The translations under genes and the position numbers were made by a program. Below are positions 3,760-61,380 of a stretch of 64,000 nucleotides of DNA, one piece after another. Source of the DNA: Candidatus Aenigmatarchaeota archaeon. Lineage in GTDB: Archaea; Aenigmatarchaeota; Aenigmatarchaeia; GW2011-AR5. A model generated the notes under the pieces. The model ran no database searches, was not told the DNA's origin, and was given only the letters and a program-made list of their open reading frames with translations. The first letter of the stretch is position 1; every line of letters starts with the position of its first letter. The stretch covers positions 4,547 through 68,546 of the forward strand of contig JACPJW010000001.1 in the NCBI GenBank assembly GCA_016187335.1, read 5' to 3'.

Positions 3760-3885
3760 GAAACTTTTCTGATTCCGTTTCCTTGAAGAACGAAGTTCTT
3801 CGAGGTCCCAAAGAATCTTCGATTCTTTGAGATGATGAAACTTTTCTGATTCCGTTTTGATGAAACTTTTCTGAAAAGTTTCTAC
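3760..3885. repeat. Cluster of short repeats and palindromes downstream of the P-type ATPase stop
   Basis: Two copies of gaaacttttctgattccgttt (3760-3780, 3837-3857). Third copy ends in the 19-bp palindrome AAACTTTTCTGAAAAGTTT (3863-3881). Additional palindromes lie at 3785-3801 and 3810-3828. Confidence 0.7.
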
Positions 3886-6536: not shown

Positions 6537-6566
6537 ATCACTGACGGCTTAGTTTCCATCAACGGT

Positions 6567-8064: not shown

Positions 8065-8074
8065 AGGAACCCTT

Positions 8075-11495: not shown

Positions 11496-11498
11496 AGT

Positions 11499-11828
11499 TT
11501 ACCTCAGCGCGATGTTGTAGAAAAGAGTCCACGTGATGAGCCACGAAAGCAGCAGAACGAAAGCGGAGCCGTACCATTTGCCTGCTTCCATCTTGAGATA
11601 ATGCACCGAAAATGCGTAGCCCGCGCCCCCGGCGATCAAAGCAAAAAGCAGCCCCATGGTTGTGGTGTTGAGCACGAACGAAGCGTAGCCGGCTATGGTC
11701 CCCAGAATCATGTGGACAGCGGTCGCCTTCAGCTCGTCGTCAAAATATTCGTCGAATTTCACAATAATTACCTTTATCAAGGCGGATGAAAAGTTATAGT
11801 GAAGGACATAATATTTTGGACATATCAT
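11499..11828 (-). CDS. Small integral membrane protein, hypothetical
   Basis: 109 aa with three predicted TM helices. Confidence 0.35.
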   Translation of the reverse strand: MICPKYYVLHYNFSSALIKVIIVKFDEYFDDELKATAVHMILGTIAGYASFVLNTTTMGLLFALIAGGAGYAFSVHYLKMEAGKWYGSAFVLLLSWLITWTLFYNIALR

Positions 11829-11907
11829 ATGTCTTTCACATATAGTAAGGGCGTCATAATACGTTCAATTATTTACGTCCATTACTATAAAGTCAGGTGT
11901 TTTCCGC

Positions 11908-12588: not shown

Positions 12589-12636
12589 TTATGACACCTC
12601 TAATTCATTTTTCAAATAGAATTAGGATTCAAGCAC

Positions 12637-13496: not shown

Positions 13497-13619
13497 AGCG
13501 GAGTGGAGCAGCCTGGAGTGCTCGTCGAGCAACTGGCACGAATGGCCCATAGGCATGCTCTAGGATACCCGAAAGCAATTATGCCGGGAAGGTCGGCAGT
13601 TCAAATCTGCCCTCCGCTA
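13497..13619 (+). tRNA. Intron-containing tRNA (anticodon not resolved)
   Basis: 5' acceptor AGCGGAG pairs with 3' CTCCGCT. D-arm GAGC/GCTC. T-arm GGCAG-TTCAAAT-CTGCC plus discriminator A. About 48 extra nt between D-arm and T-arm indicate one or more introns. Confidence 0.6.
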
Positions 13620-16618: not shown

Positions 16619-19294
16619 TTACGGGCAGTATTGCCCCCATTCGTCCTCGGTAGGCTCCGCTCCCGAGCAGCAGGCCTGTCCTTCGCTTATTGAATAATAT
16701 TGATCCACACAGCTTACTTGAGTGAATTTGTCTTCGCCGCCGGTTCCGCTACCTCCGCCTGATGAGGGGCAGTAATAATATCCGTAATAATCCTGGACAG
16801 GCTGCTCGCCGGAACAGCACTGCTGCGTATACGGGTCAACATCCATGTAGTCTTCAACGCAGCCCGCAGGAACAAAGTCGTCCCAATAACCACCGCCTCC
16901 TGACGACGAGCTGCTTGTTTGCGCCAGGAGGTTGCTGGTCGCATCGTCCGCCCACACCCAGCATTGCGTTTCCGCGTCTTCGCCTTCAAATGTCTCGTAG
17001 CTCCCTATGCAATCGCCAGTGCTTTCTGAATCCACGCACCAGTAAGAGTATCCCGTATCACTGCCAACATCCGTAACAGCGCAACCGTAGAATGCATTTT
17101 CGCCTGCTGTCGCTCCGGCTGGTTCAAATCCCGGACCTGCTGCGAGCGTGTCGGAAGGGAGTTCCCTTTCTATCTCTGCTATAGTCCTGGTTCGTGTCGC
17201 TGCTGGTGTGCATGTTTCAAGGGTTCTGCTGCATCCCAATCCTCTGTAAACATACGCATCAGCGCCCATATCGTATTCGCATGAACATGCTCCGGCTGTT
17301 GTTCCTGTTTTGCTCTGCGCTGCTGCAACCGTGCACTCTCTGTCAGCATATAAAGTGGAAAGACAGTCGCTTCTTGCTCCGCTGGGATAGCACTGGTATC
17401 TTCCGGAATTATCTTTGCATAACTGGCTCGTTTCCTGCGCGGAAGTGGTTTTCTGCGCCGCTGGTGTTCCTTCCTCTACAACGCAATAGCTGTTCTTTGA
17501 AACAAGCTTCTTTCCTGCATCATTTGCATCACAGCATTTCGCACCTGAATCAAGGAACCCTCTTTCCTTCACGCAAGCCTGCCGGCCGTAAGGGAAGGAA
17601 GTAACGGACTCCGCTGTCTTGGGTTCTTCTGGTTTTGCTGACGTTCCTTTGTCTCCCAGCGATTCGCGTTTCGCTCCCCATGTCAGGCAGCACGTGTCGC
17701 CTTCGCCGGCTGTAGTGCATGACTGGGATTCCCTTGAAGACGAGGAGCTTCGCAGCCATCCCTTGCTTATTACGCAGTTCTTGTATGCTTCGCTGCTGCT
17801 GCTTATGCATTCGCCCTTGAGCTGGGCGCAGTATGTCCTCTTTGCTGCCGCCGTCGTTGCCGCGCCGCTTTTCTTGGCTTCGCATTCTTCTTTTGTTGAA
17901 TAAGATGACAAAGTCCTGCTGGGGTCGCATTCTGTAACGCACACTTCTGCGTATTCTCCCGAATCCGGCTCGTCAAGGGCGCAAAGCTTGTATTTCTGTT
18001 CTGCTGCGGCCTCGCCGTATTTGACAATAACAGCAAACCTGTCGTAAGTCTTGCCGTCAGCAACAAGCTGGACAGTACCGGTGTCAATGCTTGCTATCGG
18101 CCTGCTTCTCGCTGATGCCCTTGTCCTTTCCCGCAGGACTTCTTCCGTTGGCACGCTTCCCAGCACGTCGCCCGGTTTCAATGTATCTTTATACTTATTC
18201 AAAGCCGCCTGGCATTGAGAAAGCGCTGTGGAGCCTGCATAGCCTTCTGCTTTCAACACATCAAAGCCTGTATCGTACGGCAGTTCGCCGGAGCTGTCCC
18301 CGCATTTCTGCCTGCAGTATATCTTTTCCGTCAATGATGCTTCGTCGTACGCGGAGCACGCAAAAACGTTCTGCGACACTGCTACGGGTTTCGTTACTGT
18401 GGTGACAGGTCGCGCTGGCGCTTTTGTTGCTGGGGGTTTTGCAGTAGTTATCGTGGGTTTTTTAGCAGCTGCCTCGCTCTCACGTTGTTTTGTCCTTGCC
18501 TCGGCTTCCGCTTTCTGGCGGGCGTTAAGAACTGACGGTTCCGCAGGCTCTTTCTTTCCGCCTATGTTTATGCAGCATTCCTCTTCAAGTTTGCACTCCG
18601 AGACAGTTCCCTGAAACACTGTCCCGCCCAACTGGTCGCACCCGCTGGCTCCAAGTACAGTGTTCTTTATTCTTGTGCATCTCCCGTTAAGAGGCTGGCC
18701 GCTGCATTTTGGCGCAGAGCCTACGCGAATACAGCTTTCCCACCATGAACATCCCTCGCGGTCCAATCCTTCTCTTCCAAAGCCTAAGAATCTGCATTCG
18801 CCTTTCCTTCCGTACTGGTCTGTATCCGTGCACTTCAGTTTTTGAGAAGTCGGCGCGGCGGCGGGCGGCGGAGCAGGAGATGACGCCTTTGAAGCATCGG
18901 TCTTTGCCTTTTCACATTCAGCTTTTGCATAAGGTCCGCCTTTCGCGTACTGGGATTCGTCATTACAGCTTTCAAGGCAGTCAAATCTTTTGCTGTCCCT
19001 TACATATCCGCACAGGTAAAATTTCCCTGCAGTCTGCATCCCCGTTATCGGAATAGCCGCCTCTTCCTGCAGCGCCGCTTTTTCCTCCTGCGGCTGCAGC
19101 GCAAAGTATGTTCCTTTGTCCGTGTCTACCTTCACAACAGAATACGAAGCGAAGCCCGTCGCAGCAGAAAGATTTATCTGGGAATAAAAAATTGCCATCG
19201 CAACCAGCAGGGAAGCTGCAAGAATGTAGCGCGACGAGGGCACATTATGGCTCTTTTCGCCTTTGGAATGCTTTCTGTATTTCCGTGGCATCAA
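16619..19294 (-). CDS. Very large secreted Cys-rich surface protein (paralog family 2)
   Basis: N-terminal signal/TM. About 60 Cys. Thr/Ala/Pro-rich linkers. Shares blocks with 19419..21632 (LNARQKAEAEARTKQ, KLKCTDTDQYGRKGEC..GFGREGLDREGC, KIYCRQKCG, SQSCTTAGEGDTCCL). Confidence 0.6.
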   Translation of the reverse strand: MMPRKYRKHSKGEKSHNVPSSRYILAASLLVAMAIFYSQINLSAATGFASYSVVKVDTDKGTYFALQPQEEKAALQEEAAIPITGMQTAGKFYLCGYVRDSKRFDCLESCNDESQYAKGGPYAKAECEKAKTDASKASSPAPPPAAAPTSQKLKCTDTDQYGRKGECRFLGFGREGLDREGCSWWESCIRVGSAPKCSGQPLNGRCTRIKNTVLGASGCDQLGGTVFQGTVSECKLEEECCINIGGKKEPAEPSVLNARQKAEAEARTKQRESEAAAKKPTITTAKPPATKAPARPVTTVTKPVAVSQNVFACSAYDEASLTEKIYCRQKCGDSSGELPYDTGFDVLKAEGYAGSTALSQCQAALNKYKDTLKPGDVLGSVPTEEVLRERTRASARSRPIASIDTGTVQLVADGKTYDRFAVIVKYGEAAAEQKYKLCALDEPDSGEYAEVCVTECDPSRTLSSYSTKEECEAKKSGAATTAAAKRTYCAQLKGECISSSSEAYKNCVISKGWLRSSSSSRESQSCTTAGEGDTCCLTWGAKRESLGDKGTSAKPEEPKTAESVTSFPYGRQACVKERGFLDSGAKCCDANDAGKKLVSKNSYCVVEEGTPAAQKTTSAQETSQLCKDNSGRYQCYPSGARSDCLSTLYADRECTVAAAQSKTGTTAGACSCEYDMGADAYVYRGLGCSRTLETCTPAATRTRTIAEIERELPSDTLAAGPGFEPAGATAGENAFYGCAVTDVGSDTGYSYWCVDSESTGDCIGSYETFEGEDAETQCWVWADDATSNLLAQTSSSSSGGGGYWDDFVPAGCVEDYMDVDPYTQQCCSGEQPVQDYYGYYYCPSSGGGSGTGGEDKFTQVSCVDQYYSISEGQACCSGAEPTEDEWGQYCP

Positions 19295-19418
19295 ATATCA
19301 ATTGTTATTTGTGATAAGTGAAATAAATAGATTTTCGCCAAGACGGGAAGATGAAATACTGCAGCTTCGTTCCATGAATTTCCGTTTGACAATATCATAA
19401 GGAATAGAATTATGCCCT

Positions 19419-21632
19419 CTACGCGCCGCAGTAAAAGCTGTCCCACCCTTCGCCGCATCCCTGATAGACGGAGTAGTCGAGGTCATAATCGTAAACGCAT
19501 TCGCATGTATCCGTCTGGTCAGACGTCGGCACGAATTCGTCTCCGCCTTCAAATCCGCCGCCTTCGGCCGGAGTTCCCTGCCATTCTGCAGCAGGCGCCT
19601 TCAGTTCCCTGCCTGTTTTTTGCTCGCATTCTTCTTTAGGCATGTCTGATTCAACAACAGTATCCCAGCCGCAATCAGATGCTTCAGAGCAGTATTTAAC
19701 ATTATAGACATCGCCGTAGTAATCCGTCTCCTCGTATGAGCACAGCACCCTCGGCTCAAACTTCAGGCAGCACGTGTCGCCCTTGCCTGCTGTAACGCAC
19801 GACTGCGAAGCTGATGAATATGAAGGGCTTGTCAGTTCCAATCCTGTATAACATGAATCAACGCTTGAATCCACGCACCTGCCTATGAGGTCCTCGCAAT
19901 AAGTCCTTTCTGCAGCAGGCTTCGCAGGCTCGGCCGGTTTCGCGGGCTCTGCAGGTTCAGCAGCTTCGGCAAATCTGATGATTACTGCTGTCCTGTCGTA
20001 AGTATTTCCTTCAACAGTCAGCGTCTGGTAGCCCAGGTCAACGCTTTTTATCAAGTCGCCGTGAAACAGCGACCCAGGACTCAATTCATCTTTGTATTTC
20101 TTCAAAGCGACCTGGCAGTCAGAAAGGTAATCAAATCCATTTGACCTCATGATGCCTGTATCGTAAGGGTCGTTGAATATTCCTTCCAGGGCGTCCCCTC
20201 CGTTCTCCGGCCCGCACTTCTGCCTGCAGTATATTTTCTGCAGCAGCTTATCAGGTAGCAGACTCCCCGGCGGTTCCCCTTCATATCTAGTGCACCCGTA
20301 AAACGTCGTGGCGCGCAGGACTTCGGACGTGGTCGTCGTTGCGCCGCGCGTAGGGGTTGGCGCGGGCGCTGAAGGTTTTGTAGCCGCTCTTGAAGGCACT
20401 GACGATTCAGTACATAAAACATTTCCCTGTTCATCATTAACAGGATTGAGTCCTCCGCAGCATGACTCCCCTGCTTTTGTTATGTAATCACCTTTCTTCA
20501 CGCAGGAAGGTCCTGGTGCTTCAGGCACGCCCGTTTCTCTTTCCAGCCTTTTCTTGACAACTTCGCATTGAGCAAGGGTGCTGAATCCGCTCTCAAATCC
20601 TTTCACACTTACTTGGTAATCCGTAGCTGTCTTGTCACACTCAAAACCGCAGTAATACGGAACGTTTGTCACTAAAAACGTGGTTCTGCATAATTTATAA
20701 TAGCGGGAAACAGAAGGCGCCGCAGGCACTGCAGAAGATTTTACGCACTGCCTGTTTTTGGAAACCAATCCTTCGCAACAGCTGTCTCCAGACCTTTCAA
20801 TAAACTGTCCTTCCTTGACACAAAACGTTCTTGCAGCAGGCTGCGCTGCTGCAGGCTTCACGCATTGTTTATTTTTGGAAACAAGACCTTCGCAGCATGC
20901 ATCCTTGGCTCTTTCAATATATTGTCCTTCCTTGACGCAGAATTGTGCCGGTGGCTGCGCTGATGGTGTGGTAACTTTGTAGCATGCACTCCAGAAATCA
21001 CATCCCTCGCGATCTTTTAGTTGTTCCCTGCCAAAGAAGCCTTGCCAAGTACATTCTCCTACAACACCTTTGGAATCCTCTTGCCAGCATTTGAGTTTAG
21101 CAGAAACCGAAGACTGTGCAGCTGCTGACGGCTGTGCTTGTGATAGCCCCGCGGATGCTGCAGCTCCCTGGGTGCTCTCGCTCTGCCTTGTTCTCGCCTC
21201 GGCTTCTGCCCTTTGGCGGGCGTTAAGTCCCGATGCTGCGGATGGAGTTGATGGCTGCACTGATGGAAGCGCTCCTCTAAGACAGCATGCACCTGTATAT
21301 CCGCATGAGCCAGCTACCTCGCTGTCAGGACATGGCGAACCAAGAAGAAAGTAGGGTTTTCCTTTGCACTCAGCGCTGATTCTTGGATTATTCGCGCATG
21401 TTTTTTGCTGAGGCCGTGTTCCGGCTTCTTCCGTCGCAAATCCCGTCACCGGCACCGCAGCCTTTTCTTCCTGCACGTCAACGTAAAAAGAGCCCTGGGC
21501 AAGCTCGGGGTGCGCTTCGGTAAAATCTGTCACAAGCCCCGTCACGGAGCCTTTCACGTCTAAAGCCGAATAGGCAAACGCGAGGGAAACAAATAAGAAA
21601 AGCACCCCTAACTCTTTCAGAATGCGGGACAT
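19419..21632 (-). CDS. Very large secreted Cys-rich surface protein (paralog family 2)
   Basis: Signal peptide. Shares conserved Cys-containing blocks with 16619..19294. The upstream ~25 nt (21633-21660) are similar to 19295-19320. Confidence 0.6.
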   Translation of the reverse strand: MSRILKELGVLFLFVSLAFAYSALDVKGSVTGLVTDFTEAHPELAQGSFYVDVQEEKAAVPVTGFATEEAGTRPQQKTCANNPRISAECKGKPYFLLGSPCPDSEVAGSCGYTGACCLRGALPSVQPSTPSAASGLNARQRAEAEARTRQSESTQGAAASAGLSQAQPSAAAQSSVSAKLKCWQEDSKGVVGECTWQGFFGREQLKDREGCDFWSACYKVTTPSAQPPAQFCVKEGQYIERAKDACCEGLVSKNKQCVKPAAAQPAARTFCVKEGQFIERSGDSCCEGLVSKNRQCVKSSAVPAAPSVSRYYKLCRTTFLVTNVPYYCGFECDKTATDYQVSVKGFESGFSTLAQCEVVKKRLERETGVPEAPGPSCVKKGDYITKAGESCCGGLNPVNDEQGNVLCTESSVPSRAATKPSAPAPTPTRGATTTTSEVLRATTFYGCTRYEGEPPGSLLPDKLLQKIYCRQKCGPENGGDALEGIFNDPYDTGIMRSNGFDYLSDCQVALKKYKDELSPGSLFHGDLIKSVDLGYQTLTVEGNTYDRTAVIIRFAEAAEPAEPAKPAEPAKPAAERTYCEDLIGRCVDSSVDSCYTGLELTSPSYSSASQSCVTAGKGDTCCLKFEPRVLCSYEETDYYGDVYNVKYCSEASDCGWDTVVESDMPKEECEQKTGRELKAPAAEWQGTPAEGGGFEGGDEFVPTSDQTDTCECVYDYDLDYSVYQGCGEGWDSFYCGA

Positions 21633-30690: not shown

Positions 30691-31827
30691 TTAATTTCTT
30701 CTGAAATCACTTTCATAAATTTGGTAATATTTACCTCTTTCAAGGGCATCCATAATTTCCCATATTGTTTTACCTAACCTTTCTGTTCTAAGCGACTCAA
30801 TAAAATTCCTGCCTGCTGGTGTATGAGCTTTACGACCTTGTGGCGGTATTCCTTTCCTTTCGGGTGCAAGAAAATACCATATGCTAAGATCGTAATTATT
30901 ACGGGTCCTAGGACTTAACCATATGTCTGTAGCATATCCAGCCACATCGTATCTTATTCCTTCTATTGTCACCCTCCATCTTCCTTTAGGTGGTGGATCA
31001 AATTTTATAATTTGTAAATTAGCTCTGTTTTCATCTATTGGCAGTCTAACTCCTTCTAATCCCTTGATTCTACTCACATCAATTGTAGCGTAAATATTCA
31101 AATTTGGTGGATCGGCAGGGTCGTATTTGTTTTTAATCACTCTTATCAATAATTCGCCTTGGCCTATTGCCCTCAAAGAAAGCGGTTTCAGTTTCCCTGA
31201 ACCTGGAAAATAAACATCGTATCCTTTGCATGTGGCTGCAATTTCGCCCTTTCTTACGCCTTCTAAATAAGGTTCAGCAAAACCAGAAAATTTCAATGCT
31301 TGCGGGTTTCTGCGCAAAAGTTCACTAAGTTTAGAAAAGTCCCATCTTTCCGGTGTTGTTGAGCAAGGGAAAATAGGTGCCTCTTCCTGCGGTGTCGGTT
31401 GAGTCGTTACAGGCTGCTGCCCGTCTGCCGGCTGCTGGTCCTGTGCCGCTCCGGGCGGCGCTGGAGGAGGCGCATCCGTGCTCTGGCTTGCGCTAATATT
31501 CGGTGCGTAAGAAAGCGCTCCAAGCAATGCGATCGCTGTAAGTTCTGTTGCAAGCCGGGTTCTTTGGTTATATCCTCTTTTCATTACGCTTGCTTCCACA
31601 TTTTCCGGGTCCACAACATTCTGCTGCACATACCTTAAAGCGACATCACGCTGCTTTAACAGGTATTGTCCTGTCGCACTGGCACGATTCATTGCGGCAC
31701 TAAATTGGTCTCGTGCATAGCCTCGTGCGGCATTCCAGTAGCTTGCCAATGAACGACTTCCAGAAGTAACCCTGCCCATTATTTCTGTCCTTTGCTGCTG
31801 CTCCGTCGGCCTTAATACTATTCCCAT
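30691..31827 (-). CDS. Membrane-anchored protein with Pro-rich linker (paralog family 3)
   Basis: Cytoplasmic N-terminal domain, TM (LATELTAIALLGALSYAPNI), linker DAPPPAPPGAAQDQQPADGQQPVTTQPTPQEE, then a ~220 aa C-terminal domain. ~120 nt are near-identical to the paralog 31863..32987. Confidence 0.55.
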   Translation of the reverse strand: MGIVLRPTEQQQRTEIMGRVTSGSRSLASYWNAARGYARDQFSAAMNRASATGQYLLKQRDVALRYVQQNVVDPENVEASVMKRGYNQRTRLATELTAIALLGALSYAPNISASQSTDAPPPAPPGAAQDQQPADGQQPVTTQPTPQEEAPIFPCSTTPERWDFSKLSELLRRNPQALKFSGFAEPYLEGVRKGEIAATCKGYDVYFPGSGKLKPLSLRAIGQGELLIRVIKNKYDPADPPNLNIYATIDVSRIKGLEGVRLPIDENRANLQIIKFDPPPKGRWRVTIEGIRYDVAGYATDIWLSPRTRNNYDLSIWYFLAPERKGIPPQGRKAHTPAGRNFIESLRTERLGKTIWEIMDALERGKYYQIYESDFRRN

Positions 31828-31862
31828 CTTTTCAATGTTCATCTTATTTAGTTTTTTGTTAA

Positions 31863-32987
31863 TTAATGTTTAAATTCGTCAGAATGACGACCATAGTAAT
31901 TGCCTTTATTCATTTTATCTATAACTTCCCACATAATATCTCCAAATATTCTTGATTTATCAATATTTTTAAAATTCCTGCCAGCCGGTGTGTAGCCCTT
32001 GAACCCTTGCACGGGTGGTATCATTCCGGATTTAAAATACAATATACCAAAATCAAATTTGTTGGATGTTTTGGGGTTGAGCCACACATCTATTCCAAAT
32101 TCGGTTATATCGTATCTTATTCCTCCGAATGTTATTGGCCACCTTCCTTGAACAGATGGATCATATTTGTATACTCTTAAGTTAGGTCTATTTTCATTTA
32201 TTGGAAAGTTTATTTGCTCTAAGCCTCTAATTCCTTTTACAGTTATTACGAAATCAGTATTCAAATTCGTAGGGGCATCTGGGTAGTACTTATTTCCAAT
32301 GACATTCATCAACAATTCCCCATCGGGCCCAATAGCTCTGAGTGGGAAAGGCTTTTGCCCTCTTCTCAGGAAAGAAATATCATAACCTATGCACGTTGCT
32401 GTAGTTTCTCCTGATTCAACAGCTTTTACATAAGGCGCGGCATGACTGGAAAATTTCAGTACTCTCTGTCTTCTTGGACCTAAAAATAATTCTTTGAATT
32501 TAGGGTTGCTCGCATTCCATGTTTCTCCTGATTTGGCGCAAGGGAAAATAGTTCCTTCTTCCTGCGGTGCCGGTTGAGTCGTTACAGGCTGCTGCCCGTC
32601 TGCCGGAGGCTGGTCCTGCCCCGCTCCCGGTGGTGCAGGCGGCGGCGCATCCGTGCCCTGGCTTGCGCTAATATTCGGTGCGTAAAGCATTAGACCGGCT
32701 AAACCTGTGGCAAGCGCTCCGGCGCGTCTTTTTTGTGATGGTCTGTTCCGCAGTACGTCTCCTTCAACTTGAGCTGCCAGCTTCAATCCCGATAAATAAT
32801 CAGAAACAGCTTTGCTTTGCCTTCCGGCGTATTTTGAAAAAGTGTCCGCTTTATCTAAGGCATAAGTTCCAGCAGTTCTGGCTTGGCTTGACAAGTAACC
32901 TCTCACTGCGCCTAAGTAACCTCTTGGATTTCCGCTGACGATTTCTGCCCTGACCTGCTCTTCTGGCATTCGTATACTTATTCCCAT
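31863..32987 (-). CDS. Membrane-anchored protein with Pro-rich linker (paralog family 3)
   Basis: Same architecture and same linker sequence as 30691..31827. Confidence 0.55.
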   Translation of the reverse strand: MGISIRMPEEQVRAEIVSGNPRGYLGAVRGYLSSQARTAGTYALDKADTFSKYAGRQSKAVSDYLSGLKLAAQVEGDVLRNRPSQKRRAGALATGLAGLMLYAPNISASQGTDAPPPAPPGAGQDQPPADGQQPVTTQPAPQEEGTIFPCAKSGETWNASNPKFKELFLGPRRQRVLKFSSHAAPYVKAVESGETTATCIGYDISFLRRGQKPFPLRAIGPDGELLMNVIGNKYYPDAPTNLNTDFVITVKGIRGLEQINFPINENRPNLRVYKYDPSVQGRWPITFGGIRYDITEFGIDVWLNPKTSNKFDFGILYFKSGMIPPVQGFKGYTPAGRNFKNIDKSRIFGDIMWEVIDKMNKGNYYGRHSDEFKH

Positions 32988-44582: not shown

Positions 44583-44637
44583 TTGATCATCTTAATATTC
44601 TCAGATTTCAAGTGTTTGCACCTACCCTTTTTATATG

Positions 44638-44793
44638 CGAGGGGCCGGATTCGAACCGACGAAGGCACTAAGCCACTAGGTATCTCACATGAGACCAGAT
44701 GGCTCCATGGCCTGAACATAGCCTCAGGACCTAAGCTTGGCTTACAGCTGTTACCTGATCTAGCCCCTTTGTCCACTCGGGAACCCTCGCTTA
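44638..44793 (-). tRNA. Long intron-containing tRNA, class II-like (probably Leu)
   Basis: Minus strand: 5' GCGAGGG...T-arm GTCGG-TTCGAAT-CCGGC-CCCTCGC-A. D-arm TTCCCGAGTGGACAAAGGG is class II-like. A variable-arm hairpin is present. CTTAGG/CTGAGG candidate anticodon loops both read Leu. ~65 extra nt imply one or more introns. Confidence 0.55.
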
Positions 44794-45414: not shown

Positions 45415-45476
45415 GGTAATAATCAGAAAAAAGCCCTTTTAAAATATAGTTTGTAATTTGTTACAGTCTTCAAATT

Positions 45477-45723
45477 GCTCCCGTAGTCTAGCCCGGCAAA
45501 GGAGAAACTGCGTTTCTCCCTTTACCCTCTTCCTTTCTGAAAAAGAAGGGAATGAGGTTACAAGGAGAGAACCGTAGGTTCTTCTCCTGTTAGGATATCG
45601 GCCTCTCAGCACCCTTTCTTTTGAAAAAGAAAGTGTGCACGGAAAGAAAACTTCAGAAAAGCGTGAACGGAAAGAATGGGTGGAAGTTCGCCGAAGACGC
45701 GGGTTCAAATCCCGCCGGGAGCA
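45477..45723 (+). tRNA. Very long tRNA-like gene with probable multiple introns (anticodon unresolved)
   Basis: 5' GCTCCCG-TA-GTCTAGCCCGG... and 3' ...GCGGG-TTCAAAT-CCCGC-CGGGAGC-A give a perfectly paired acceptor and T-arm ~247 nt apart. Interior contains palindromic hairpins (CTTTCTTTTGAAAAAGAAAG). Confidence 0.5.
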
Positions 45724-50295: not shown

Positions 50296-52092
50296 TCAAT
50301 TTTTAATTGTTTGCTTCCGGGCTTTCCTGTATTTCCTCCACATTCTGCCGAATTCCTTGGTCTTCATGATTTCGCCGAAGCTGCCGCTTGCCACGAGCCT
50401 GCCCCCCCTGAAGACGTAAATCCTGTCGAACATAGGAAGCAGGTGAAGCCTATGGACCGAGGAAAGTATAGTCCTGTCCTTGAACTCGCGGAATATATTC
50501 GTGTATATCGCCATTTCATTGACCGTGTCCACGCTGCTGGTCGGTTCGTCAAGAAGTATTATCGGCGAGTCTTCCGCCGCAAGCAGCCCGCGGGCCAGAG
50601 CCAGCCTTTGCTTCTCGCCCGTGCTCAGGTTCACGCCCCTCTCCTTGATGTGGGAATTGTATTTCTTCGGAAGCCTTGCCGCCACTTTGGCGAATCGCGC
50701 GATCCCCGCATATTTCTGGATTTTCTTCATGCTTGCGCGCCTCAGCATCGTTATGTTATCCTTCACGGTCGCGTCAAACAATTCCGGGTCCTGCGGAAGC
50801 AGCGTCATGTTCCCGGCCAGTGGCTCGAAGTCCTTGAATTTCCTGCCGTTTATCTCGATAAGGACATGCTTGGGCTTGTAGAGTGCTCTTATCAGCTTGA
50901 GGAACGTGGTTTTCCCGCCGCCGCTCTCGCCTACAAGAGCTATTTTCTCGCCGTTGCGTATTTCCAGCGAAACGTTATTGAGGTGAAGATTGCTTTCCGC
51001 ATCATGATAGTGGAAAGAAAGGCCTGTAATTTTCATTTTTTCCCATGGCATACTAAGATCAAAAGATCTGGTCATATCCTTTTTCCCGAATTCCTTGCTT
51101 ATCTCGTTGGCATTCTGCATCGCTGTCTTCTGCCTTACCAGATCGCTGTAGCTGGCTGCGAACTGGAAGAAGCTCTCGCGTATTTTACCGACATAACCGT
51201 AGAATATGTACACCGTCCCTATCAGCACCGCGCTTCCTGCCGCGTAGCTGCCCAGAATATATGATATGAGCACTGCGGCGAACATCACCGCGCCCAGGAT
51301 GGACACGAGAAACCATTTTGTTTCGTTGGTCTTCGACGCACTGCTGTGCATGGAGAATGGTGCGATTATTTTCCTGTACATCATGTTCGATGAAAGCCTT
51401 TCAAGCCTGAGTATTACGACGGTCGCTATATTGCTTATTATGTCAAATACCTTCGCGGATATCTCGTTCTCGGCCCTGAAAATCTTCCTGTACATGATTA
51501 TCAGGGTCCTGTCAAGCCGCAATACAATCAGAAAGCTGAGCAGTGTTATTATCCCCACGATGTACGCGGAATTTATGTCAAACAATGCGAGCACGATGTA
51601 CGCGGTAATGAAGCCCACGATTATTCTTATTATCTGCCAGGAGTTCTGCGAGAAATTGTAGATGCTGCTGGCCCCTTTCTCTATCCTGTCTATTGTTTCG
51701 CCTGAATGGTGCTCGGCATGCCACTTCATTGGCAGGCTCATCGTGCCCTCAAGCATCCGCTTCCTGTATCTCGCCCTTGCGTAGAAAGCGTTGTTCGTTT
51801 CGATCACCCTCGAAGGACCGTGAAAAACCCAGAATCCCACCTCTATTGTTACCAGCGCCGCGATAAGCCAGAATATCGCATTGGTGCTGGAAGCGGTGAT
51901 GCCCTGCGTCTGTATCGTGTTGAGCATCATCGCGAAAATCACGGGCTCAAGCAGGGATATCAGATTGGCTATCGTCGACAGGGCGAGGTAAAGCACGACC
52001 ATGCGCCTGTTGCCTTCGGAGTACTTCCACATCTCCCGCGCCATGTAAATTAGAGGGTTTTCGCCTGTTTTCATGCGGCTCACTGTAATCAT
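50296..52092 (-). CDS. ABC exporter, fused permease/ATPase
   Basis: 6-TM N-terminal domain. Walker A GESGGGKTT, signature LSTGEKQRLALARGLL, Walker B ILLDEPTSSVD. Confidence 0.85.
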   Translation of the reverse strand: MITVSRMKTGENPLIYMAREMWKYSEGNRRMVVLYLALSTIANLISLLEPVIFAMMLNTIQTQGITASSTNAIFWLIAALVTIEVGFWVFHGPSRVIETNNAFYARARYRKRMLEGTMSLPMKWHAEHHSGETIDRIEKGASSIYNFSQNSWQIIRIIVGFITAYIVLALFDINSAYIVGIITLLSFLIVLRLDRTLIIMYRKIFRAENEISAKVFDIISNIATVVILRLERLSSNMMYRKIIAPFSMHSSASKTNETKWFLVSILGAVMFAAVLISYILGSYAAGSAVLIGTVYIFYGYVGKIRESFFQFAASYSDLVRQKTAMQNANEISKEFGKKDMTRSFDLSMPWEKMKITGLSFHYHDAESNLHLNNVSLEIRNGEKIALVGESGGGKTTFLKLIRALYKPKHVLIEINGRKFKDFEPLAGNMTLLPQDPELFDATVKDNITMLRRASMKKIQKYAGIARFAKVAARLPKKYNSHIKERGVNLSTGEKQRLALARGLLAAEDSPIILLDEPTSSVDTVNEMAIYTNIFREFKDRTILSSVHRLHLLPMFDRIYVFRGGRLVASGSFGEIMKTKEFGRMWRKYRKARKQTIKN

Positions 52093-52153
52093 TCGGAGGA
52101 CTAGGCTTTAATGAGTTCAAATGGGCACGACAGGATATTCGCCACTGACCTCT

Positions 52154-52184
52154 TTTGATGAAACTTTGGAGCAGCAAAGTTTCT
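52154..52184. repeat. Variant copy of the ttttgatgAAACTTT palindromic element
   Basis: ttttgatgaaactttg-gagcag-caaagtttc with 9-bp inverted arms, immediately 5' (plus coordinates) of the tRNA-like fragment. Confidence 0.55.
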
Positions 52185-52185
52185 A

Positions 52186-52230
52186 TGAGCCCGATGGGAT
52201 TCGAACCCACGACCTTCTTGGACCTATTCT
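52186..52230 (-). other. Orphan tRNA 3' fragment (T-arm + acceptor 3' strand) or highly non-canonical tRNA
   Basis: Minus strand GGTCGTGGG-TTCGAAT-CCCAT-CGGGCTC-A is a clean T-arm and 3' acceptor. No matching 5' acceptor strand could be found within 100 nt. Confidence 0.4.
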
Positions 52231-52287
52231 TACATCACTGCAAAAACAGTCGGTCCGAAGCCGGACGCTCTATTTGCCACAACTTTT

Positions 52288-52317
52288 CGTTTTGATGCAA
52301 CTTTTCTGAAAAGTTGC
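52288..52317. repeat. Copy of the cgttttgatgcAACTTTTCTGAAAAGTTg element
   Basis: Near-identical over ~30 nt to 3852-3882 and 6567-6596. Palindrome spans 52298-52316. Confidence 0.7.
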
Positions 52318-52382
52318 CCTGGCTAAGCTACGGGCCCAGCAGCATAATGATGTATGTTAGAACAAGCGCTTATAAATTATAT

Positions 52383-53747
52383 TCATCCGAGGTATTTCAT
52401 CATAACCTTGCGGATTGTCGCGGGGTCGCCTCTTCCTTCTGTCTTCCGCATGACCTGGCCTACAAGGAAATTGAATGCTTCCTGCTTGCCAGATTTGTAA
52501 TCAACGACAGCAGAAGCGTTCTCCGCAATCGTCTGCTTCACTGACTGCTCCAGAACTGTTTCATCATAAATGCGCTTTCTCGTGCCGACTGCTTTTTCAG
52601 GATCCGTCGGCCGCAGGACCATCTCGCGCAGCAGCATCTCCGCGCTGCGCTCCGTGATTGCTTTCTCTTGTACCATTTTCAGCAGTTTCACCAGCCCTTC
52701 CTCTGTCAGCTCGCTTTCAGATATCCGCAGAGTGTTGTAGTTCAGCGTCTTTTTGATTTCCCCGGCGAACCATTTCGCGGCCAATTGAACGTCTGTTTTC
52801 TTTATTACTTTTTCGAACATGTCGGCAAGATCAGGCTCTGATGCTATGGCTTCGGCTATTTCCTGCTGCAGCTTCGTTTCCTTCACGTAACGCCGCACTT
52901 TCTGCTCCGCGAATTCGGGCATCAGCTTTTTCAGCTCATCCGTTTTCTTCGCGTCAATGGTTATTTTCACTAGGTCCGGTTCCATGATGTATCCGTAGTC
53001 CTCTTCCTCTTCCTTCGTGCGCAGCGTTTTCGTCGTTCCCGAGACAGGATCCCATCCGCGCGTTTCTCTTACAATTTTCCTGCCGTGCCTCAGCATGTAG
53101 TTCTGCCTGACAATTTCATAGTTCAATGCTTTTTCCACGTCTTTAAAACCGGAAATGTTCTTCACTTCCACCCTTTCCTTCTTGACGGAAATGTTTGCGT
53201 CAACCCTCATCGAGCCTTCTATGTTAGGGTCAAAAACTCCCAGGTATTGCAGGATGCTTGAAAGCTTCTGCAAAAAGATGCGCGCTTCCTTGACGTCAAC
53301 AAAGCTGGGTTCAGTTACAATCTCGCAGAGCGGCGTTCCGCTGCGGTTGTAATCAACAAGAACGTAGTCGCCTGCGTGAACGAGCCGCGCAGGGTCTTCC
53401 TCAAGGTTGATTCTTCTGATTTCAATCCTTTTCTCCCCGATGCTCAGCCATCCGTTCTGCGCCAGCGGGATTTCATACTGCGTTATCTGGTAGTTCTTGG
53501 AAAGGTCCGGATAGAAATACGATTTTCTTGAAAAGAATGTTTCCTTCGGGAACTTGCAGTTCAATGCCAAAGCTACCTTCATCCCGTATTCTATTGCTTT
53601 TTTATTGACCCTCGGCTTGCTTCCGGGAAATCCCAAACAGGTTTCACAGGTTAAAGTATTCGGCTCTTTCACAAATTCGTTCCTGCAGCCGCAGAACATC
53701 TTTGTCTGCGTGAGCAGCTGTGTGTGGATTTCCAGGCCGATTTTCAT
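52383..53747 (-). CDS. gatB: Asp-tRNA(Asn)/Glu-tRNA(Gln) amidotransferase subunit B
   Basis: MKIGLEIHTQL...CGC...CETCLGFPG GatB N-terminus. Start set at the internal Met whose ATG overlaps the upstream stop (ATGA). Confidence 0.85.
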   Translation of the reverse strand: MKIGLEIHTQLLTQTKMFCGCRNEFVKEPNTLTCETCLGFPGSKPRVNKKAIEYGMKVALALNCKFPKETFFSRKSYFYPDLSKNYQITQYEIPLAQNGWLSIGEKRIEIRRINLEEDPARLVHAGDYVLVDYNRSGTPLCEIVTEPSFVDVKEARIFLQKLSSILQYLGVFDPNIEGSMRVDANISVKKERVEVKNISGFKDVEKALNYEIVRQNYMLRHGRKIVRETRGWDPVSGTTKTLRTKEEEEDYGYIMEPDLVKITIDAKKTDELKKLMPEFAEQKVRRYVKETKLQQEIAEAIASEPDLADMFEKVIKKTDVQLAAKWFAGEIKKTLNYNTLRISESELTEEGLVKLLKMVQEKAITERSAEMLLREMVLRPTDPEKAVGTRKRIYDETVLEQSVKQTIAENASAVVDYKSGKQEAFNFLVGQVMRKTEGRGDPATIRKVMMKYLG

Positions 53748-59335: not shown

Positions 59336-59712
59336 TAGAAATAATTATGCAGAACTGCAAATAAAAGCGATGTTTAACACAAGCTTTTCCGTTTTGATAA
59401 ATTTTTGATGCAAATTTTTCCGTCACAAGCAGAACACCGTTCTGCTGTGCAACAGAAACGAAGTTTCTGTTTGCAACGATTTTTGCGAAGCAAAAAGGGT
59501 TGAAAGAAAGAGGGGCGGCCGGCAAGGGGACTTGAATTTTAGGTTCTTGTCCTCAAACCAGCCGCCGTCTTTCGTGGGGTGTGGTCAGTATCAGGGTGAA
59601 AATCCAACAGGCGTTTCTGCGCTGTCTGGACCTATCATCGCTGTTTTCTGGACAGCGAAGGAATCTCAGAAAATTTTATTTCCCGAGATGGATGATGACA
59701 TTTCCGTCTTTG

Positions 59713-61026
59713 CTATTTCTTCAATATTTTGATTCCGAGCTCTTTTTCCAGTGATTCCTGCTTCCTCGGCAGGGAGCCCATGATGTACGGCGATTTGACG
59801 CCCGTGATGATGGTGATGACCTGGACCTTGTGCGCAAATTCCGGCAGTATGCGCGCGCCCCAGATTACCTGCGCGCTCGGGTCCAGCTGCGACTGCACGT
59901 AGTTGCCTATCCTGTTCACTTCCTCCAGGCGCAAATCAGGCCCGCCCGTAACGTGAACCATTGCTCCCTTTGCGCCGTTGTAGTCGACGTTGAGCAGCGG
60001 GTGGTTCATGGCTCGCTGCACCGCAAGCTCAGCGCGGTCCTCGTCCTCGGCATTCCCTACGCCGATAGCGGCAACGCCTCCGTAGCGCATTATGGCCTTC
60101 ACGTCGGCGTAATCCAGGTTGATGAGGGACGGCTCGTAGATGGTCTCTGTTATCCCTTTTATCATTGAAGCAATCAGCCCGTCAGCAATGCCGAAAGCAG
60201 TCTTGAGCGGCAGGCTCTTGCCTAATTCAAGCAGTCGCTGGTTTTCTATGGCGATTACGGTGTCGCAGCTCTGGCGCAGCGCAACCAGGCCCTCTTCGGC
60301 TTTGACGGCGCGGGCGCCTTCCAGCTTGAGCGGCAACGTCACTGCAGCAATAACTATGGCGCCGGCATCCTTGGCAAATTTTGAGATAACAGGCGCGGCT
60401 CCCGTTCCTGTTCCGCCGCCGAGTCCGCATGTCACAAAAACCAGGTCTGTGTCCGCGAGCAGCTCCTTCAGTTCTCTTTTATTTTCCATGGCGGCGTTCT
60501 TGCCGACATCCGGATATCCGCCGGCTCCCAGGCCCTTTGTCAGGTTTTTTCCGATAAGCACCTTCTGCTGCGCCTTCGTTATGTGAAGGTGTTTTGCGTC
60601 AGTATTGACAGCCACGGTCATCGCCCCGCTCACGCCCTTTTCGGTCAGCGCGGTTATGGTGTTGTTCCCTGCGCCGCCGACGCCGATGACCAGGATGCGC
60701 GCCTTGAACGCTTGGAATTCTTGCACATTATCAAAAGTAAGCCCGCTGTTCTTCTTCGGCTCTGGTGGAACCTGCTCTACCACGGGTTCTGCTATGGGTT
60801 CTGCTGCAGGCTCTATAGAAATAGGCTCATTTTGTACAGCCGGTTGTGCTTCTTGCATATCAGGAACTACAACTTCTTGTATTTCTGCAGCAGGAAGTGT
60901 TTCCTGGCTTTCAGCAGAAAAAACCTCTTGAACAGGTTCAGCTGGCCCTGCTGCCGGCACTGACGCTTCCGCATTTTCAGCAGCCGCAGCCTCGGTATTT
61001 TCTGTTATTTTTTCTTCCTCGGACAT
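59713..61026 (-). CDS. ftsZ: Cell division GTPase FtsZ with ~110-aa acidic/Pro-rich N-terminal extension
   Basis: VIGVGGAGNN and GGGTGTGAAPV tubulin motifs. Start chosen at MSEEEK (ATG 61024-61026); the ORF continues upstream to 61203 without an obvious alternative. Confidence 0.85.
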   Translation of the reverse strand: MSEEEKITENTEAAAAENAEASVPAAGPAEPVQEVFSAESQETLPAAEIQEVVVPDMQEAQPAVQNEPISIEPAAEPIAEPVVEQVPPEPKKNSGLTFDNVQEFQAFKARILVIGVGGAGNNTITALTEKGVSGAMTVAVNTDAKHLHITKAQQKVLIGKNLTKGLGAGGYPDVGKNAAMENKRELKELLADTDLVFVTCGLGGGTGTGAAPVISKFAKDAGAIVIAAVTLPLKLEGARAVKAEEGLVALRQSCDTVIAIENQRLLELGKSLPLKTAFGIADGLIASMIKGITETIYEPSLINLDYADVKAIMRYGGVAAIGVGNAEDEDRAELAVQRAMNHPLLNVDYNGAKGAMVHVTGGPDLRLEEVNRIGNYVQSQLDPSAQVIWGARILPEFAHKVQVITIITGVKSPYIMGSLPRKQESLEKELGIKILKK

Positions 61027-61041
61027 GGTTCTCCCACGGTT

Positions 61042-61049
61042 GTATATAA
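61042..61049 (-). promoter_or_regulatory. TATA-box-like element for ftsZ
   Basis: TTATATA on the minus strand ~20-25 nt upstream of the chosen ATG. Confidence 0.3.
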
Positions 61050-61380
61050 CCGAAAATATACTTTCAGGCATCAAAAACTTCTTTTTAACCCCGTGATATA
61101 TTCCCATGTCCAAAGAATTAGTCCAAACGGTAAATATTTCCAAATTCGCTAGAAAATGTCCCAATTGTCCAACCGATTGTCCAGATCGGAAGTGCAATAA
61201 CATTACGTCCCTGTCCAGGGGATGTAACTGATTCTTTTTTCTTTACCCAAGTTAAAAAGGATTTGTTTACTGGAGCATATATGTTAAATTGGCGGGTGGT
61301 TTCCTGTTTTATTCTGAATGTTAACCTACGCGAGTTGTAAGGGAAGAGTAGCTTAACGGAACAGAAAGATGTAAATATAA

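Follow-up and report, generated by a model that had tools for sequence, protein, structure and literature searches.

A predicted three-exon tRNA-Arg(TCG) gene beside gatB in Candidatus Aenigmatarchaeota has an intron built on a hairpin repeat found elsewhere in the genome

A tRNA T-arm and 3' acceptor strand lie between two palindromic elements on the minus strand of a 64-kb stretch of archaeal DNA (64,000 nucleotides, here called the window), which raises the question of whether they are the remains of something else or part of an intact gene. The original prediction spoke of an orphan 3' fragment lacking a matching 5' acceptor, and offered a relic att site, the 3' half of a split tRNA or a tRNA with an unconventional intron as explanations. 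The fragment itself is confirmed: GTGGG-TTCGAAT-CCCAT-CGGGCTC-A reads from 52210 to 52186 and occurs once in the window. The interval assigned to it, 52186-52230, also takes in 13 nt of what proves to be an intron. ARAGORN found 0 tRNA genes in the raw window, and Rfam gave no match there at its gathering threshold; at E <= 10 on 52000-52500, Rfam returned only a T-arm fragment plus chance matches (istR, mascRNA), the tRNA model scoring 14.1 bits at the locus over model positions 43-63 only.

The 5' acceptor strand that was thought to be absent lies 14-20 nt past the end of that interval. GGGCCCG at 52337-52331 pairs over 7 bp (one G-U) with CGGGCTC, and is followed by TA-GCTT-AGCCAGG, a normal start for positions 8-9 and the D-arm. 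This end of the tRNA was hidden by two introns at unusual positions. Excision of 52317-52274 and 52250-52218 from the 152-nt pre-tRNA body leaves a product of 75 nt, with CCA not encoded, that ARAGORN calls tRNA-Arg(tcg). Instead of an orphan 3' fragment, a full three-exon gene is present on the minus strand at 52337-52186, with the following parts:

52370..52376, minus strand: TTTATAA, resembling a TATA box, 7 nt past the gatB stop codon and 33-39 nt ahead of the mature 5' end
52186..52337, minus strand: complete tRNA-Arg(TCG) gene, from in-silico splicing and orthologue comparison
52318..52337, minus strand: exon 1, tRNA positions 1-19 (acceptor 5' strand GGGCCCG, U8 A9, D-stem GCTT, D-loop AGCCAGG)
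52274..52317, minus strand: intron 1, 44 nt, in the D-loop after G19, from bulge-helix-bulge (BHB) scan and minimum free energy (MFE) fold
52251..52273, minus strand: exon 2, positions 20-41 (D part A20 U20a A21, D-stem 3' strand GAGC, G26; anticodon part with stem and loop UCCGG-CUUCGGA, then C39 C40 G41)
52218..52250, minus strand: intron 2, 33 nt, inserted at 41/42 on the 3' side of the anticodon stem, from BHB scan and MFE fold
52186..52217, minus strand: exon 3, positions 42-73 (G42 A43, variable loop AGGUC, T-arm GUGGG-UUCGAAU-CCCAU, acceptor 3' strand CGGGCUC, discriminator A)

We conclude, with a probability of about 0.92, that this member of Candidatus Aenigmatarchaeota (DPANN) has here an intact tRNA-Arg(TCG) gene, present as a single copy, directly 3' of gatB and with two non-canonical introns. 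The gene structure is supported by the collinear alignment of its exons with intronless orthologues, by the geometry of the BHB motifs and by covariation in the cloverleaf. As a class I cloverleaf, the spliced sequence (GGGCCCGTAGCTTAGCCAGGATAGAGCG...GTGGGTTCGAATCCCAT) has stems of 7 bp (acceptor), 4 bp (D), 5 bp (anticodon) and 5 bp (T); the anticodon loop is 7 nt long and includes U33, and the T loop is of the GTTCGAAT type. All 21 of 21 stem pairs form, with one G-U each in the acceptor, D stem and T stem, and every universal nucleotide is present (U8, A14, G18 G19, A21, U33, G53 T54 T55 C56, A58, C61).

Both introns sit in hBHBh' motifs. That of intron 1 is strict, with a central helix GCCA/UGGC, bulges GG^G and AA^A, an inner helix of 9 bp and an outer helix of 3 bp. 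Intron 2 has a central helix GGAC/GUCC, a 5' bulge CG^A and flanking helices of 11 bp (inner) and 4 bp (outer, CUUC/GAAG), and its motif is slightly relaxed because the 3' bulge, AA(^G), is 2-3 nt. These are by far the best motifs in a BHB scan of the 152-nt precursor, and the same architecture appears in the unconstrained MFE fold (z = -3.9; 0/200 shuffles were as stable). Cuts predicted after the second bulge nucleotide yield a product that lines up with intronless homologues: GG^ATAGAGC and GGACCG^GAAGGTC, the two junctions, match the orthologue L006 (GGATAGAGC and GGACCAGAAGGTC) without gaps. The suggestion of a tRNA with an unconventional intron was therefore correct in kind and wrong in number, there being two introns rather than one. 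A complete tRNA with a BHB intron had been named as the finding that would overturn the orphan reading; it is obtained by removing two BHB introns, although no automatic predictor folded it from the raw DNA.

Maturation can be pictured as follows. Transcription would start from the TATA box at 52376-52370, the predicted promoter of the gene; a conserved block TTATAA[A/G]CGCTT is shared with the region 5' of the L001 orthologue. In the pre-tRNA, exon-exon pairing would form the acceptor, D and T stems, while each intron would be extruded as a helix with the bulge-helix-bulge at its base. EndA would cleave each bulge 3' of its second nucleotide (at G19^G, A^A20, G41^A and A^G42), an RtcB-type ligase would join the three exons, and the ends would be trimmed by RNase P and RNase Z and CCA added. 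We infer transcription, cleavage and ligation of this predicted tRNA-Arg from its sequence; Pfam scans of roughly 50 window ORFs found neither EndA nor RtcB.

A decaying tRNA pseudogene, with insertions that are never removed, would also contain two long insertions and escape standard tools. There is no T-run terminator 3' of the gene, and the in-silico MFE structure of the spliced RNA differs from the cloverleaf (-34.0 versus -27.5 kcal/mol), which fits decay as well. We nevertheless consider this very unlikely, given the intact stem pairs and universal positions, the well-formed BHB motifs around both insertions and the promoter block shared with L001. Moreover, no other tRNA-Arg(TCG) lies beside gatB, several relatives have theirs here or close by, and three other tRNAs in the window are built in the same intron-rich style.

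The other two explanations of the original prediction fall with the discovery of the 5' part. That tRNA 3' ends are classic integration targets (PMC3293823) speaks for a relic attachment site with the palindromes as the ends of a mobile element, as does an unrelated metagenome contig (L135) in which a copy of the palindromic element separates a tRNA from a 21-nt duplicate of the tRNA's own 3' end. At the present locus, this reading is already refuted by the complete cloverleaf, and we give it hardly any credence: nothing is missing from the 5' two-thirds of the tRNA, which adjoin the 3' part and are collinear with orthologues; its 3' 25 nt and 5' 20 nt occur once each in the 64-kb window with up to 3 mismatches allowed, leaving no direct repeat of the 3' part; no integrase, recombinase or transposase domain was found by Pfam in about 50 ORFs; and the neighbours are housekeeping genes (gatB, gatA and an ABC transporter). 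The palindromic element is neither an att site nor the boundary of anything. A trans-spliced 3' half in the style of Nanoarchaeum equitans has essentially no probability left. DPANN does include the organism in which split tRNAs were discovered (PMC4090602), but here the 5' part is contiguous and on the same strand, a single TATA box precedes all the exons, which fit within 152 nt, and the exons are joined in cis by BHB motifs; neither a separate promoter nor a complementary leader/trailer pair was seen at the locus. Contiguity has already refuted the split-tRNA reading.

The organism was assigned to Aenigmatarchaeota by its gatB relatives (best identity 78%), several of which have a tRNA-Arg(TCG) at or near the gatB 3' end (within approximately 1 kb), on either strand. 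The genes of L006 and L008 are intronless, with Rfam tRNA scores of 66-67 bits, and the spliced window tRNA is identical to the Aenigmatarchaeota orthologue L006 at 66/75 positions (88%), gapless across both junctions. In an alignment of 8 orthologues, only 2 of them natively intronless and the splice junctions of the intron-bearing ones picked by hand, 168/168 cloverleaf cells are paired and 9 pairs are compensatory, values reached by 0/500 shuffles. Introns vary across this series: tRNA-Arg(TCG) orthologues have zero, one, two or more, located in the D-loop or at 23/24, 30/31, 37/38 or 41/42. L003 and L005 have one at 41/42, the position of intron 2, and L015 has one at the same D-loop position as intron 1, its 3' end covarying with the exon in the central helix (GCUU/GGGC). 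A tRNA-Arg with two introns is ordinary for the lineage; the exception is that one of the introns is built on a hairpin repeat found elsewhere in the genome. Orthologous tRNA-Arg(TCG) genes at one syntenic site with varied introns form a natural series for the study of intron gain and loss.

The failure of tRNA finders and covariance models on the genomic sequence is explained by the two long insertions; 6 of 7 scanned relatives, with fewer or shorter introns, pass tRNA recognition. A tRNA-Arg covariance model built from 7 orthologues (R2) does give the locus the top score of the window (24.3 bits, E 3e-4), but only with an alignment that takes a shortcut from 52268 through a truncated pseudo-acceptor, since spanning two long insertions is too costly. 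With its intron option, ARAGORN proposed a tRNA-Leu(aag) with one 76-nt intron, which we rejected because it ignores the BHB motifs and disagrees with all orthologues. Permissive enumeration of BHB introns followed by ARAGORN produced very many spurious spliced 'tRNAs', so that acceptance by ARAGORN alone is weak evidence, and it left the intron structures of the other three window tRNAs ambiguous. The window holds at least 3 further intron-rich tRNAs that ARAGORN and Rfam overlooked. The tRNA set of this genome is thus largely invisible to standard tools, which recovered 0 of at least 4 tRNAs in 64 kb, and this calls for caution with estimates of MAG completeness and claims of 'missing tRNAs' in Aenigmatarchaeota.

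The palindromes that flank the fragment do belong to one repeat family, as originally proposed, both being recognised by a covariance model that was trained on other copies of the element (R1). The element consists of a hairpin plus a ATCAAAACG tail and has six significant copies in the window (E <= 1e-3); its core palindrome has 4 matches there versus 0.07 expected. The copies, and an additional arm within intron 1, are:

3850..3882, minus strand: element copy directly past the stop codon of a P-type ATPase, 55.5 bits
6564..6596, minus strand: element copy approximately 28 nt upstream of the P-type ATPase start codon, 50.4 bits
14044..14076, plus strand: element copy within the Pus10 ORF, on the sense strand, 47.7 bits
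52148..52183, minus strand: variant element in the 3' trailer of the tRNA, 26.4 bits, E 4e-4, excluded from model building
52280..52288, minus strand: second (distal) copy of the 3' arm, GAAAAGUUG, from the MFE pair table
52285..52317, minus strand: element copy in intron 1, 52.6 bits, E 3.5e-10
59387..59417, minus strand: AT-rich variant element between ftsZ and an oxidoreductase gene, 24.7 bits, E 1e-3

The copy in intron 1 has the hairpin CAACUUUU-CAG-AAAAGUUG and the tail CAUCAAAACG, and its 5' arm provides the 5' strand of the inner helix (h') beside the 5' splice site. In the MFE fold, this arm pairs with the distal 3' arm, which brings the inner helix directly up to the central helix and makes the BHB strict; the centroid fold of the intron pairs the proximal 3' arm instead. 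The trailer copy begins 3 nt past the discriminator (GAAACUUUG-CUGCUC-CAAAGUUUC followed by AUCAAAAGAGG), and behind the copy at 3850..3882 the 3' arm and tail are partly repeated in tandem. Across the family, 117/117 stem cells are Watson-Crick; the outermost position has each of the four pair types, there is covariation in the outer stem pairs, and the ATCAAAAC tail is invariant. The copy in Pus10 coincides with a 21-nt (7-aa) in-frame insertion, a gap in the 11 closest homologues and in 3 homologous DNAs. This copy has no flanking BHB and its insert is in-frame, and we rejected the reading of the ORF copies as BHB introns.

Beyond the window, we searched metagenomes with a pattern of 15 specified bases, which is unspecific (the full hairpin is present in approximately 18/120 among the matches listed) and therefore gives no estimate of copy numbers or taxonomic range. 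Individual matches are informative. In L001, the orthologous tRNA-Arg has the hairpin-plus-tail module in its canonical 37/38 intron, compared to the D-loop intron in the window; the module is also present in introns of three unrelated tRNAs in metagenome contigs, at 37/38 in L043 and at other positions in L095 and L132. In L138, an ABC ATPase has an in-frame element insert of approximately 20 aa, its segment being 31 aa long against 12 aa in MJ0796. Contigs of virophages and giant viruses carry the core motif too, in another orientation relative to genes; in the virophage-like L142 its density is high, with at least 8 copies at fixed positions by TATA boxes and start codons. Metagenome matches are single per locus, and the one tandem array, in L149, has no spacers, which led us to reject a CRISPR-repeat-like reading (hairpin plus 8-nt handle). 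GC skew had no consistent link with element strand, in the window or the viral contigs.

What, then, is the element? It combines a short palindrome and a conserved tag in many, mainly extragenic copies (4/6 in the window), as REP sequences do, with in-frame ORF insertions that have no counterpart in close homologues (Pus10 and the L138 ABC ATPase), as in Rickettsia palindromic elements (RPEs). Most likely, the family is a REP- or RPE-like repeat that is tolerated in dispensable sequence, i.e., introns, intergenic DNA and the loop-coding parts of ORFs.

All six window copies are oriented with the local transcription unit, several begin right past a stop codon or tRNA 3' end, L142 has its copies at fixed positions, and stem sequence and tail are conserved over contigs of 24-56% GC. 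These features would suit a regulatory or structural motif rather than selfish DNA (an operator, a promoter-proximal signal or a 3'-end RNA hairpin), the intronic copy then being functional or incidental. We regard this as possible, if doubtful. The orientation relative to genes in L142, L146 and L148 is opposite to that in the window, and some copies are located within ORFs or introns, where neither an operator nor a terminator would have much purpose. In addition, a sequence-specific operator would have no need of the perfect covariation seen in the outer stem pairs, and no U-run follows the hairpin.

It is also conceivable, though rather unlikely, that the element is a mobile module whose hairpin gives rise to BHB introns or shifts them to new positions; intron 1 would then owe its existence or form to such an insertion, the hairpin providing the helix beside the 5' splice site. 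The module occupies different intron positions in the window and L001 tRNA-Arg, recurs in the introns of unrelated tRNAs, and begins 1 nt past the 5' splice site in the window, L001 and L043 (sequences read by eye); the Pus10 insertion is lineage-specific, the L138 insert is in-frame, and intron transposition by an unknown mechanism has already been inferred in Thermoproteales (PMC4090602). However, the D-loop intron of L015 has a different hairpin at the same position, so that the intron may predate the element, which may have landed in it or converted it. Only 1/6 window copies is intronic, about what random placement in non-coding DNA would give, and we found no target-site duplications around the window copies, no empty/filled intron pair, and no transposase, RAYT or Y1 HUH gene among approximately 50 window ORFs (Pfam). 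The different gene-relative orientation in viral contigs means that the copies may not share one origin. A broader version, in which the module is promiscuous in DPANN and some viral contigs, seeding, reshaping or relocating BHB introns and entering proteins in-frame, seems to us improbable to a similar degree. If true, the module would be the missing DNA-level vehicle of archaeal 'tRNA intron transposition', and its in-frame entry into proteins would parallel that of Rickettsia palindromic elements. A hairpin repeat of approximately 33 nt is in any case common to introns at different positions, intergenic DNA and ORFs, and if this pattern extends across the genome, the mechanism by which archaeal introns spread becomes testable.

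How does the locus compare with known systems? The split tRNAs of Nanoarchaeum equitans and integrase att sites likewise leave orphan-looking tRNA pieces in raw sequence, whereas the pieces here are contiguous and in order, with no duplicated tRNA end and no recombinase in the window. A functional module inside a tRNA intron is familiar from Euryarchaeota, where the tRNA-Trp intron encodes a C/D-box sRNA. Read antisense to the tRNA, our element gives UGAUG(A/C)...CUGA, resembling the C (RUGAUGA) and D (CUGA) boxes. We rejected this reading because the boxes are on the wrong strand, their spacer is 7 nt rather than approximately 12 nt, and they are not conserved, most family members having GATC instead of GATG and variable loops.

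The closest parallel for the gene is provided by the archaeal multi-intron tRNAs of Thermoproteales, Nanoarchaeota, ARMAN and other DPANN, in which introns are also bounded by BHB motifs, cut after the second bulge nucleotide, located at sites other than 37/38 (here the D-loop and anticodon stem, two per gene) and missed by standard predictors. DPANN lineages are reported to have many non-canonical introns and disrupted tRNA genes that go unpredicted (PMC5829648), and D-loop positions such as 20/21 are documented along with many others (PMC4090602). Position 41/42, that of intron 2, is absent from the intron positions quoted from PMC4090602, and Aenigmatarchaeota are outside the genomes analysed in PMC4090602 and PMC5829648; splicing is predicted in the present case. 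For the element in intron 1, the precedent is intron transposition in Thermoproteales (Fujishima et al. 2010, via PMC4090602), where, as here, related sequence occupies differing intron positions. In our case, the similarity covers approximately 33 nt and not whole introns, and the module is also intergenic, in-frame in ORFs and in viral contigs, which the texts consulted do not report for Thermoproteales introns.

Bacterial REP/BIME sequences are short palindromes (~20-40 nt) with a conserved single-stranded tag at one end, present in many copies that are mostly extragenic, often just 3' of genes and sometimes in tandem or inverted pairs (PMC3733652). Our element shares the short palindrome, the tag at one end and the multiple, mainly extragenic copies. 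It differs in its tag, which is ATCAAAACG and not GTAG or CGTC, in its AT-rich stems and archaeal host, in its copies within introns and ORFs, and in having no RAYT or Y1-transposase gene among the window ORFs. RPEs are bacterial and measure approximately 100-150 bp; reportedly (Ogata et al. 2000), they insert in-frame into protein genes and are tolerated in surface or loop regions. The element is smaller, at approximately 21-33 nt, and translation of its inserts is predicted from the reading frame, but its inserts in Pus10 (7 aa) and the L138 ABC ATPase (~20 aa) behave alike.

The minus strand of 52100-52400 carries a T-arm plus 3' acceptor (GTGGG-TTCGAAT-CCCAT-CGGGCTC-A, ending at 52186) and two palindromes, CAACTTTTCAGAAAAGTTG at 52316-52298 and GAAACTTTG...CAAAGTTTC at 52183-52160, all as originally predicted. 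The original prediction read this as an orphan tRNA 3' fragment lacking a 5' acceptor, which is wrong: GGGCCCG at 52337-52331 on the same strand, 14-20 nt past the edge of the interval then considered, pairs with CGGGCTC at all seven positions (sole wobble, G2-U71) and is followed by TA-GCTT-AGCCAGG, a textbook beginning of positions 8-9, D stem and D loop. The gene looks like a fragment because neither ARAGORN nor Rfam (gathering thresholds) finds a tRNA anywhere in the window, and a sensitive Rfam scan recognises the T-arm alone (14.1 bits).

Two insertions separate the recognisable tRNA pieces. With 52317-52274 (44 nt) and 52250-52218 (33 nt) taken out, GGGCCCGTAGCTTAGCCAGGATAGAGCGTCCGGCTTCGGACCGGAAGGTCGTGGGTTCGAATCCCATCGGGCTCA remains, which ARAGORN folds as tRNA-Arg(tcg). 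Judged from sequence and modelled folds, the locus is very probably (roughly 0.9) an intact tRNA-Arg(TCG) gene with two non-canonical bulge-helix-bulge (BHB) introns. In a BHB geometry scan of the 152-nt precursor both introns are clearly the strongest motifs; shuffled sequences gave a mean of 2.6 weak ones.

52317-52274, minus strand: intron 1, strict hBHBh' (BHB with inner and outer helices); central helix GCCA/UGGC, bulges GG^G and AA^A, 9-bp inner helix, 3-bp outer helix
52250-52218, minus strand: intron 2, slightly relaxed BHB; central helix GGAC/GUCC, 5' bulge CG^A, 3' bulge AA(^G), 11-bp inner helix, 4-bp outer helix CUUC/GAAG

The predicted cuts follow G19 (D loop) and G41 (3' strand of the anticodon stem). 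In the MFE structure of the precursor folded without constraints (-55.8 kcal/mol, z = -3.9; 0/200 shuffles equally stable), the exons form acceptor, D and T stems and both introns are extruded as in the BHB scan. Weaker sides of this reading are that the thermodynamic MFE of the spliced RNA differs from the cloverleaf and that the locus has no oligo-T terminator. A split tRNA is excluded, since the tRNA pieces are contiguous. So is a relic att site: each end of the tRNA is single-copy in the window, and about 50 window ORFs scanned with Pfam yielded no integrase or transposase, housekeeping genes only (including P-type ATPase, RNase Z, an Asp/Asn-type synthetase, RNase HII, Pus10, class I LysRS, FtsZ and UDG). 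Decay to a pseudogene is unlikely, with all stems, universal nucleotides, both BHBs and a promoter block common to L001, TTATAA[A/G]CGCTT, intact.

Upstream of the tRNA lies the GatB ORF, itself preceded by NUDIX, HAD, GatA and an SDR; an ABC transporter lies downstream. GatB relatives in reference genomes are nearly all Candidatus Aenigmatarchaeota (best, L001, 78% identity), and several carry a tRNA-Arg(TCG), on either strand, at the 3' end of gatB or up to about 1 kb from it, with differing interruptions.

L006 (GW2011_AR5) and L008: no introns
L001: one intron, 37/38
L010: one intron, 30/31
L004: one intron, 23/24
L003 and L005: two introns, 30/31 and about 41/42
L015: two introns, D loop and 30/31
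L007: at least two introns

Rfam recognises the orthologues in L008, L006, L001, L010, L003, L015 and L005 (39-67 bits); those in L004 and L007 fall below threshold. The spliced window tRNA is identical to intronless L006 at 66/75 positions, gapless and across both junctions, which align as GGATAGAGC and GGACC[G/A]GAAGGTC. Among eight orthologues, aligned with the junctions of intron-bearing members set by hand and only two natively intronless sequences, 168/168 stem cells are standard pairs, with both-side changes in nine pairs; 0/500 shuffles and no slid register approached this pairing. The D-loop intron of L015 occupies the position of intron 1. Its 3' end, GGGC-AA with exon GCUU, corresponds to UGGC-AA with GCCA in the window; exon and intron end have changed together, so that covariation keeps the central BHB helix intact. 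L015 also has, at 5519-5375 (minus strand), a 16-nt exact tandem duplication of the tRNA-Arg 5' end ahead of the gene (GGGCTCGTAGCTTAGC twice).

The palindromic element consists of a hairpin of 9 bp, as a rule nAAACTTTT-loop-AAAAGTTTn, and ATCAAAACG(G) after it. A covariance model built from 13 copies (R1) finds six in the window at E <= 1e-3, all 6/6 oriented with local genes on the ORF map.

3850-3882, minus strand: immediately 3' of a stop codon
6564-6596, minus strand: some 28 nt ahead of the start codon of the P-type ATPase
14044-14076, plus strand: within the Pus10 ORF
52148-52183, minus strand: begins 3 nt past the tRNA
52285-52317, minus strand: within intron 1 of tRNA-Arg(TCG)
59387-59417, minus strand: between ftsZ and an oxidoreductase gene

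In the 13-sequence alignment 117/117 stem cells are Watson-Crick, the loop is free, and the outermost pair occurs as CG, GC, UA and AU. Partial tandem copies lie at 3758-3787 and 3835-3864, and intergenic 3740-3882 and 59420-59500 are dense in further short perfect hairpins whose loops are 3 nt (for example GAAGAAC-gaa-GTTCTTC, AAAGAATC-ttc-GATTCTTT, CAGAAC-acc-GTTCTG, CAGAAAC-gaa-GTTTCTG).

In the fold of intron 1, the 5' arm of the element starts 1 nt past the 5' splice site and makes the inner BHB helix. A second 3'-arm copy (52288-52280) brings this helix against the central one, hence the strict BHB; the centroid structure pairs the proximal 3' arm instead. One intronic copy in six is about the expectation for random placement in non-coding DNA, and the D-loop intron may be older than its element, as the same-site intron of L015 has none. 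We treat the element-intron link as a lead rather than a finding.

The same module (GGAACTTTTCAAAAAAGTTCC-ATCAAAACGG) lies within the 37/38 intron of L001, where the window gene has no intron. In a metagenome scan with an unspecific pattern and at least 120 loci listed, the full hairpin occurs in about 18/120 loci among the matches listed, at least three of them (L043, L095, L132) within an intron of an otherwise unrelated tRNA-like gene. In the window Pus10 (ORF 13825-15066) the element matches a 21-nt, 7-aa in-frame insertion between the two CxxC zinc motifs. None of the 11 closest homologues (80-64% identity) has this insertion, nor do the three nearest homologous DNAs; it is presumably translated, there being no flanking BHB. 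The ABC ATPase of L138 has 31 residues at the element versus 12 in MJ0796. Together, the L001 and metagenome tRNA introns, Pus10 and this ATPase suggest a small repeat spreading or arising at the DNA level and tolerated in dispensable sequence; neither target-site duplications nor a candidate transposase were seen in the window.

Two metagenome contigs show 15-21-nt tRNA-end duplicates flanking hairpin insertions. L135 (about 1165-1434) has an R1-type element beside a tRNA, bracketed by a duplicated tRNA 3' end; in L068 (1-250) a duplicated tRNA 5' end brackets another hairpin (GAACCTTTT...AAAAGGTTC), with an R1-type element separately past the 3' end. These look like miniature att-type or target duplications.

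Viral contigs scanned with the 22-base element core gave nine loci. L142, an IMG/VR contig, is virophage-like, encoding two Sputnik-type major capsid proteins, a DUF5906 primase-helicase-like protein and collagen and ankyrin proteins. Its 5093-12877 holds at least eight copies of the hairpin-plus-tail core on one strand only, which at most genes adjoin TATA-like runs and start codons: where the gene is on the minus strand, the hairpin directly borders the start codon and the tail borders the TATA-like run, and one plus-strand gene has the element after its stop codon. Other core matches are giant-virus bins, and L149 (8-98, minus strand) is a spacer-less head-to-tail array with a 29-nt period at a viral contig end. 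The core thus extends beyond DPANN archaea, and how it is oriented with respect to genes varies; it may instead be a regulatory DNA motif, or AT-rich hairpins may have converged.

Further tRNA-like genes occur in the window. That at 13497-13619 (plus strand, 123 nt; acceptor AGCGGAG/CTCCGCT, D-arm GAGC-AGCCTGGAGT-GCTC, T-arm GGCAG-TTCAAAT-CTGCC), missed by ARAGORN and Rfam, is probably an intron-containing tRNA and may be an initiator-type tRNA-Met. A 247-nt gene at 45477-45723 (plus strand; acceptor GCTCCCG/CGGGAGC), overlapped by a spurious ORF (45439-45708), is probably tRNA-Glu CTC; its D loop and the region near its anticodon hold very long insertions rich in hairpins, and its orthologue at L015 9072-9270 has different ones. 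Standard tools did not detect a 155-nt class II (long variable arm) gene with insertions at 44636-44790 (minus strand; acceptor GCGAGGG/CCCTCGC). Elsewhere, a 169-nt direct repeat (31342-31510 and 32517-32685, 86% identity) lies within adjacent ORFs without Pfam matches (30691-31842, 31863-32987), probably tandem paralogues; several more internal repeats link large unannotated ORFs at 16619-21632. In the FtsZ homologue (59713-61203, minus strand) the Tubulin domain begins only at residue 169, so either the N terminus is extended by a long stretch or the start is mis-set.

There is ample precedent in Thermoproteales, Nanoarchaeota and ARMAN-type DPANN for multiple and non-canonical BHB introns, at positions including 20/21, 22/23, 25/26, 29/30 and 30/31 (PMC4090602), so the window gene belongs to a known kind. 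For DPANN, Kaneta et al. described a rise in tRNA disruption as well as tRNA genes that had gone unpredicted (PMC5829648). Neither genome set included Aenigmatarchaeota, and what is new here is another, predicted, multi-intron non-canonical BHB tRNA gene, from that lineage. In Thermoproteales, resemblance among intron sequences at differing positions has been taken as intron transposition of unknown mechanism (PMC4090602), and Sugahara et al. proposed intron gain by mobile-element integration (PMC3293823). The extreme intron-position polymorphism of orthologous tRNA-Arg(TCG) across Aenigmatarchaeota is worth following, as is the hairpin family. Rickettsia palindromic elements are in-frame ORF insertions, and the small repeat described here resembles them in this respect. 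In its palindrome plus tag it is like bacterial REP elements (PMC3733652).
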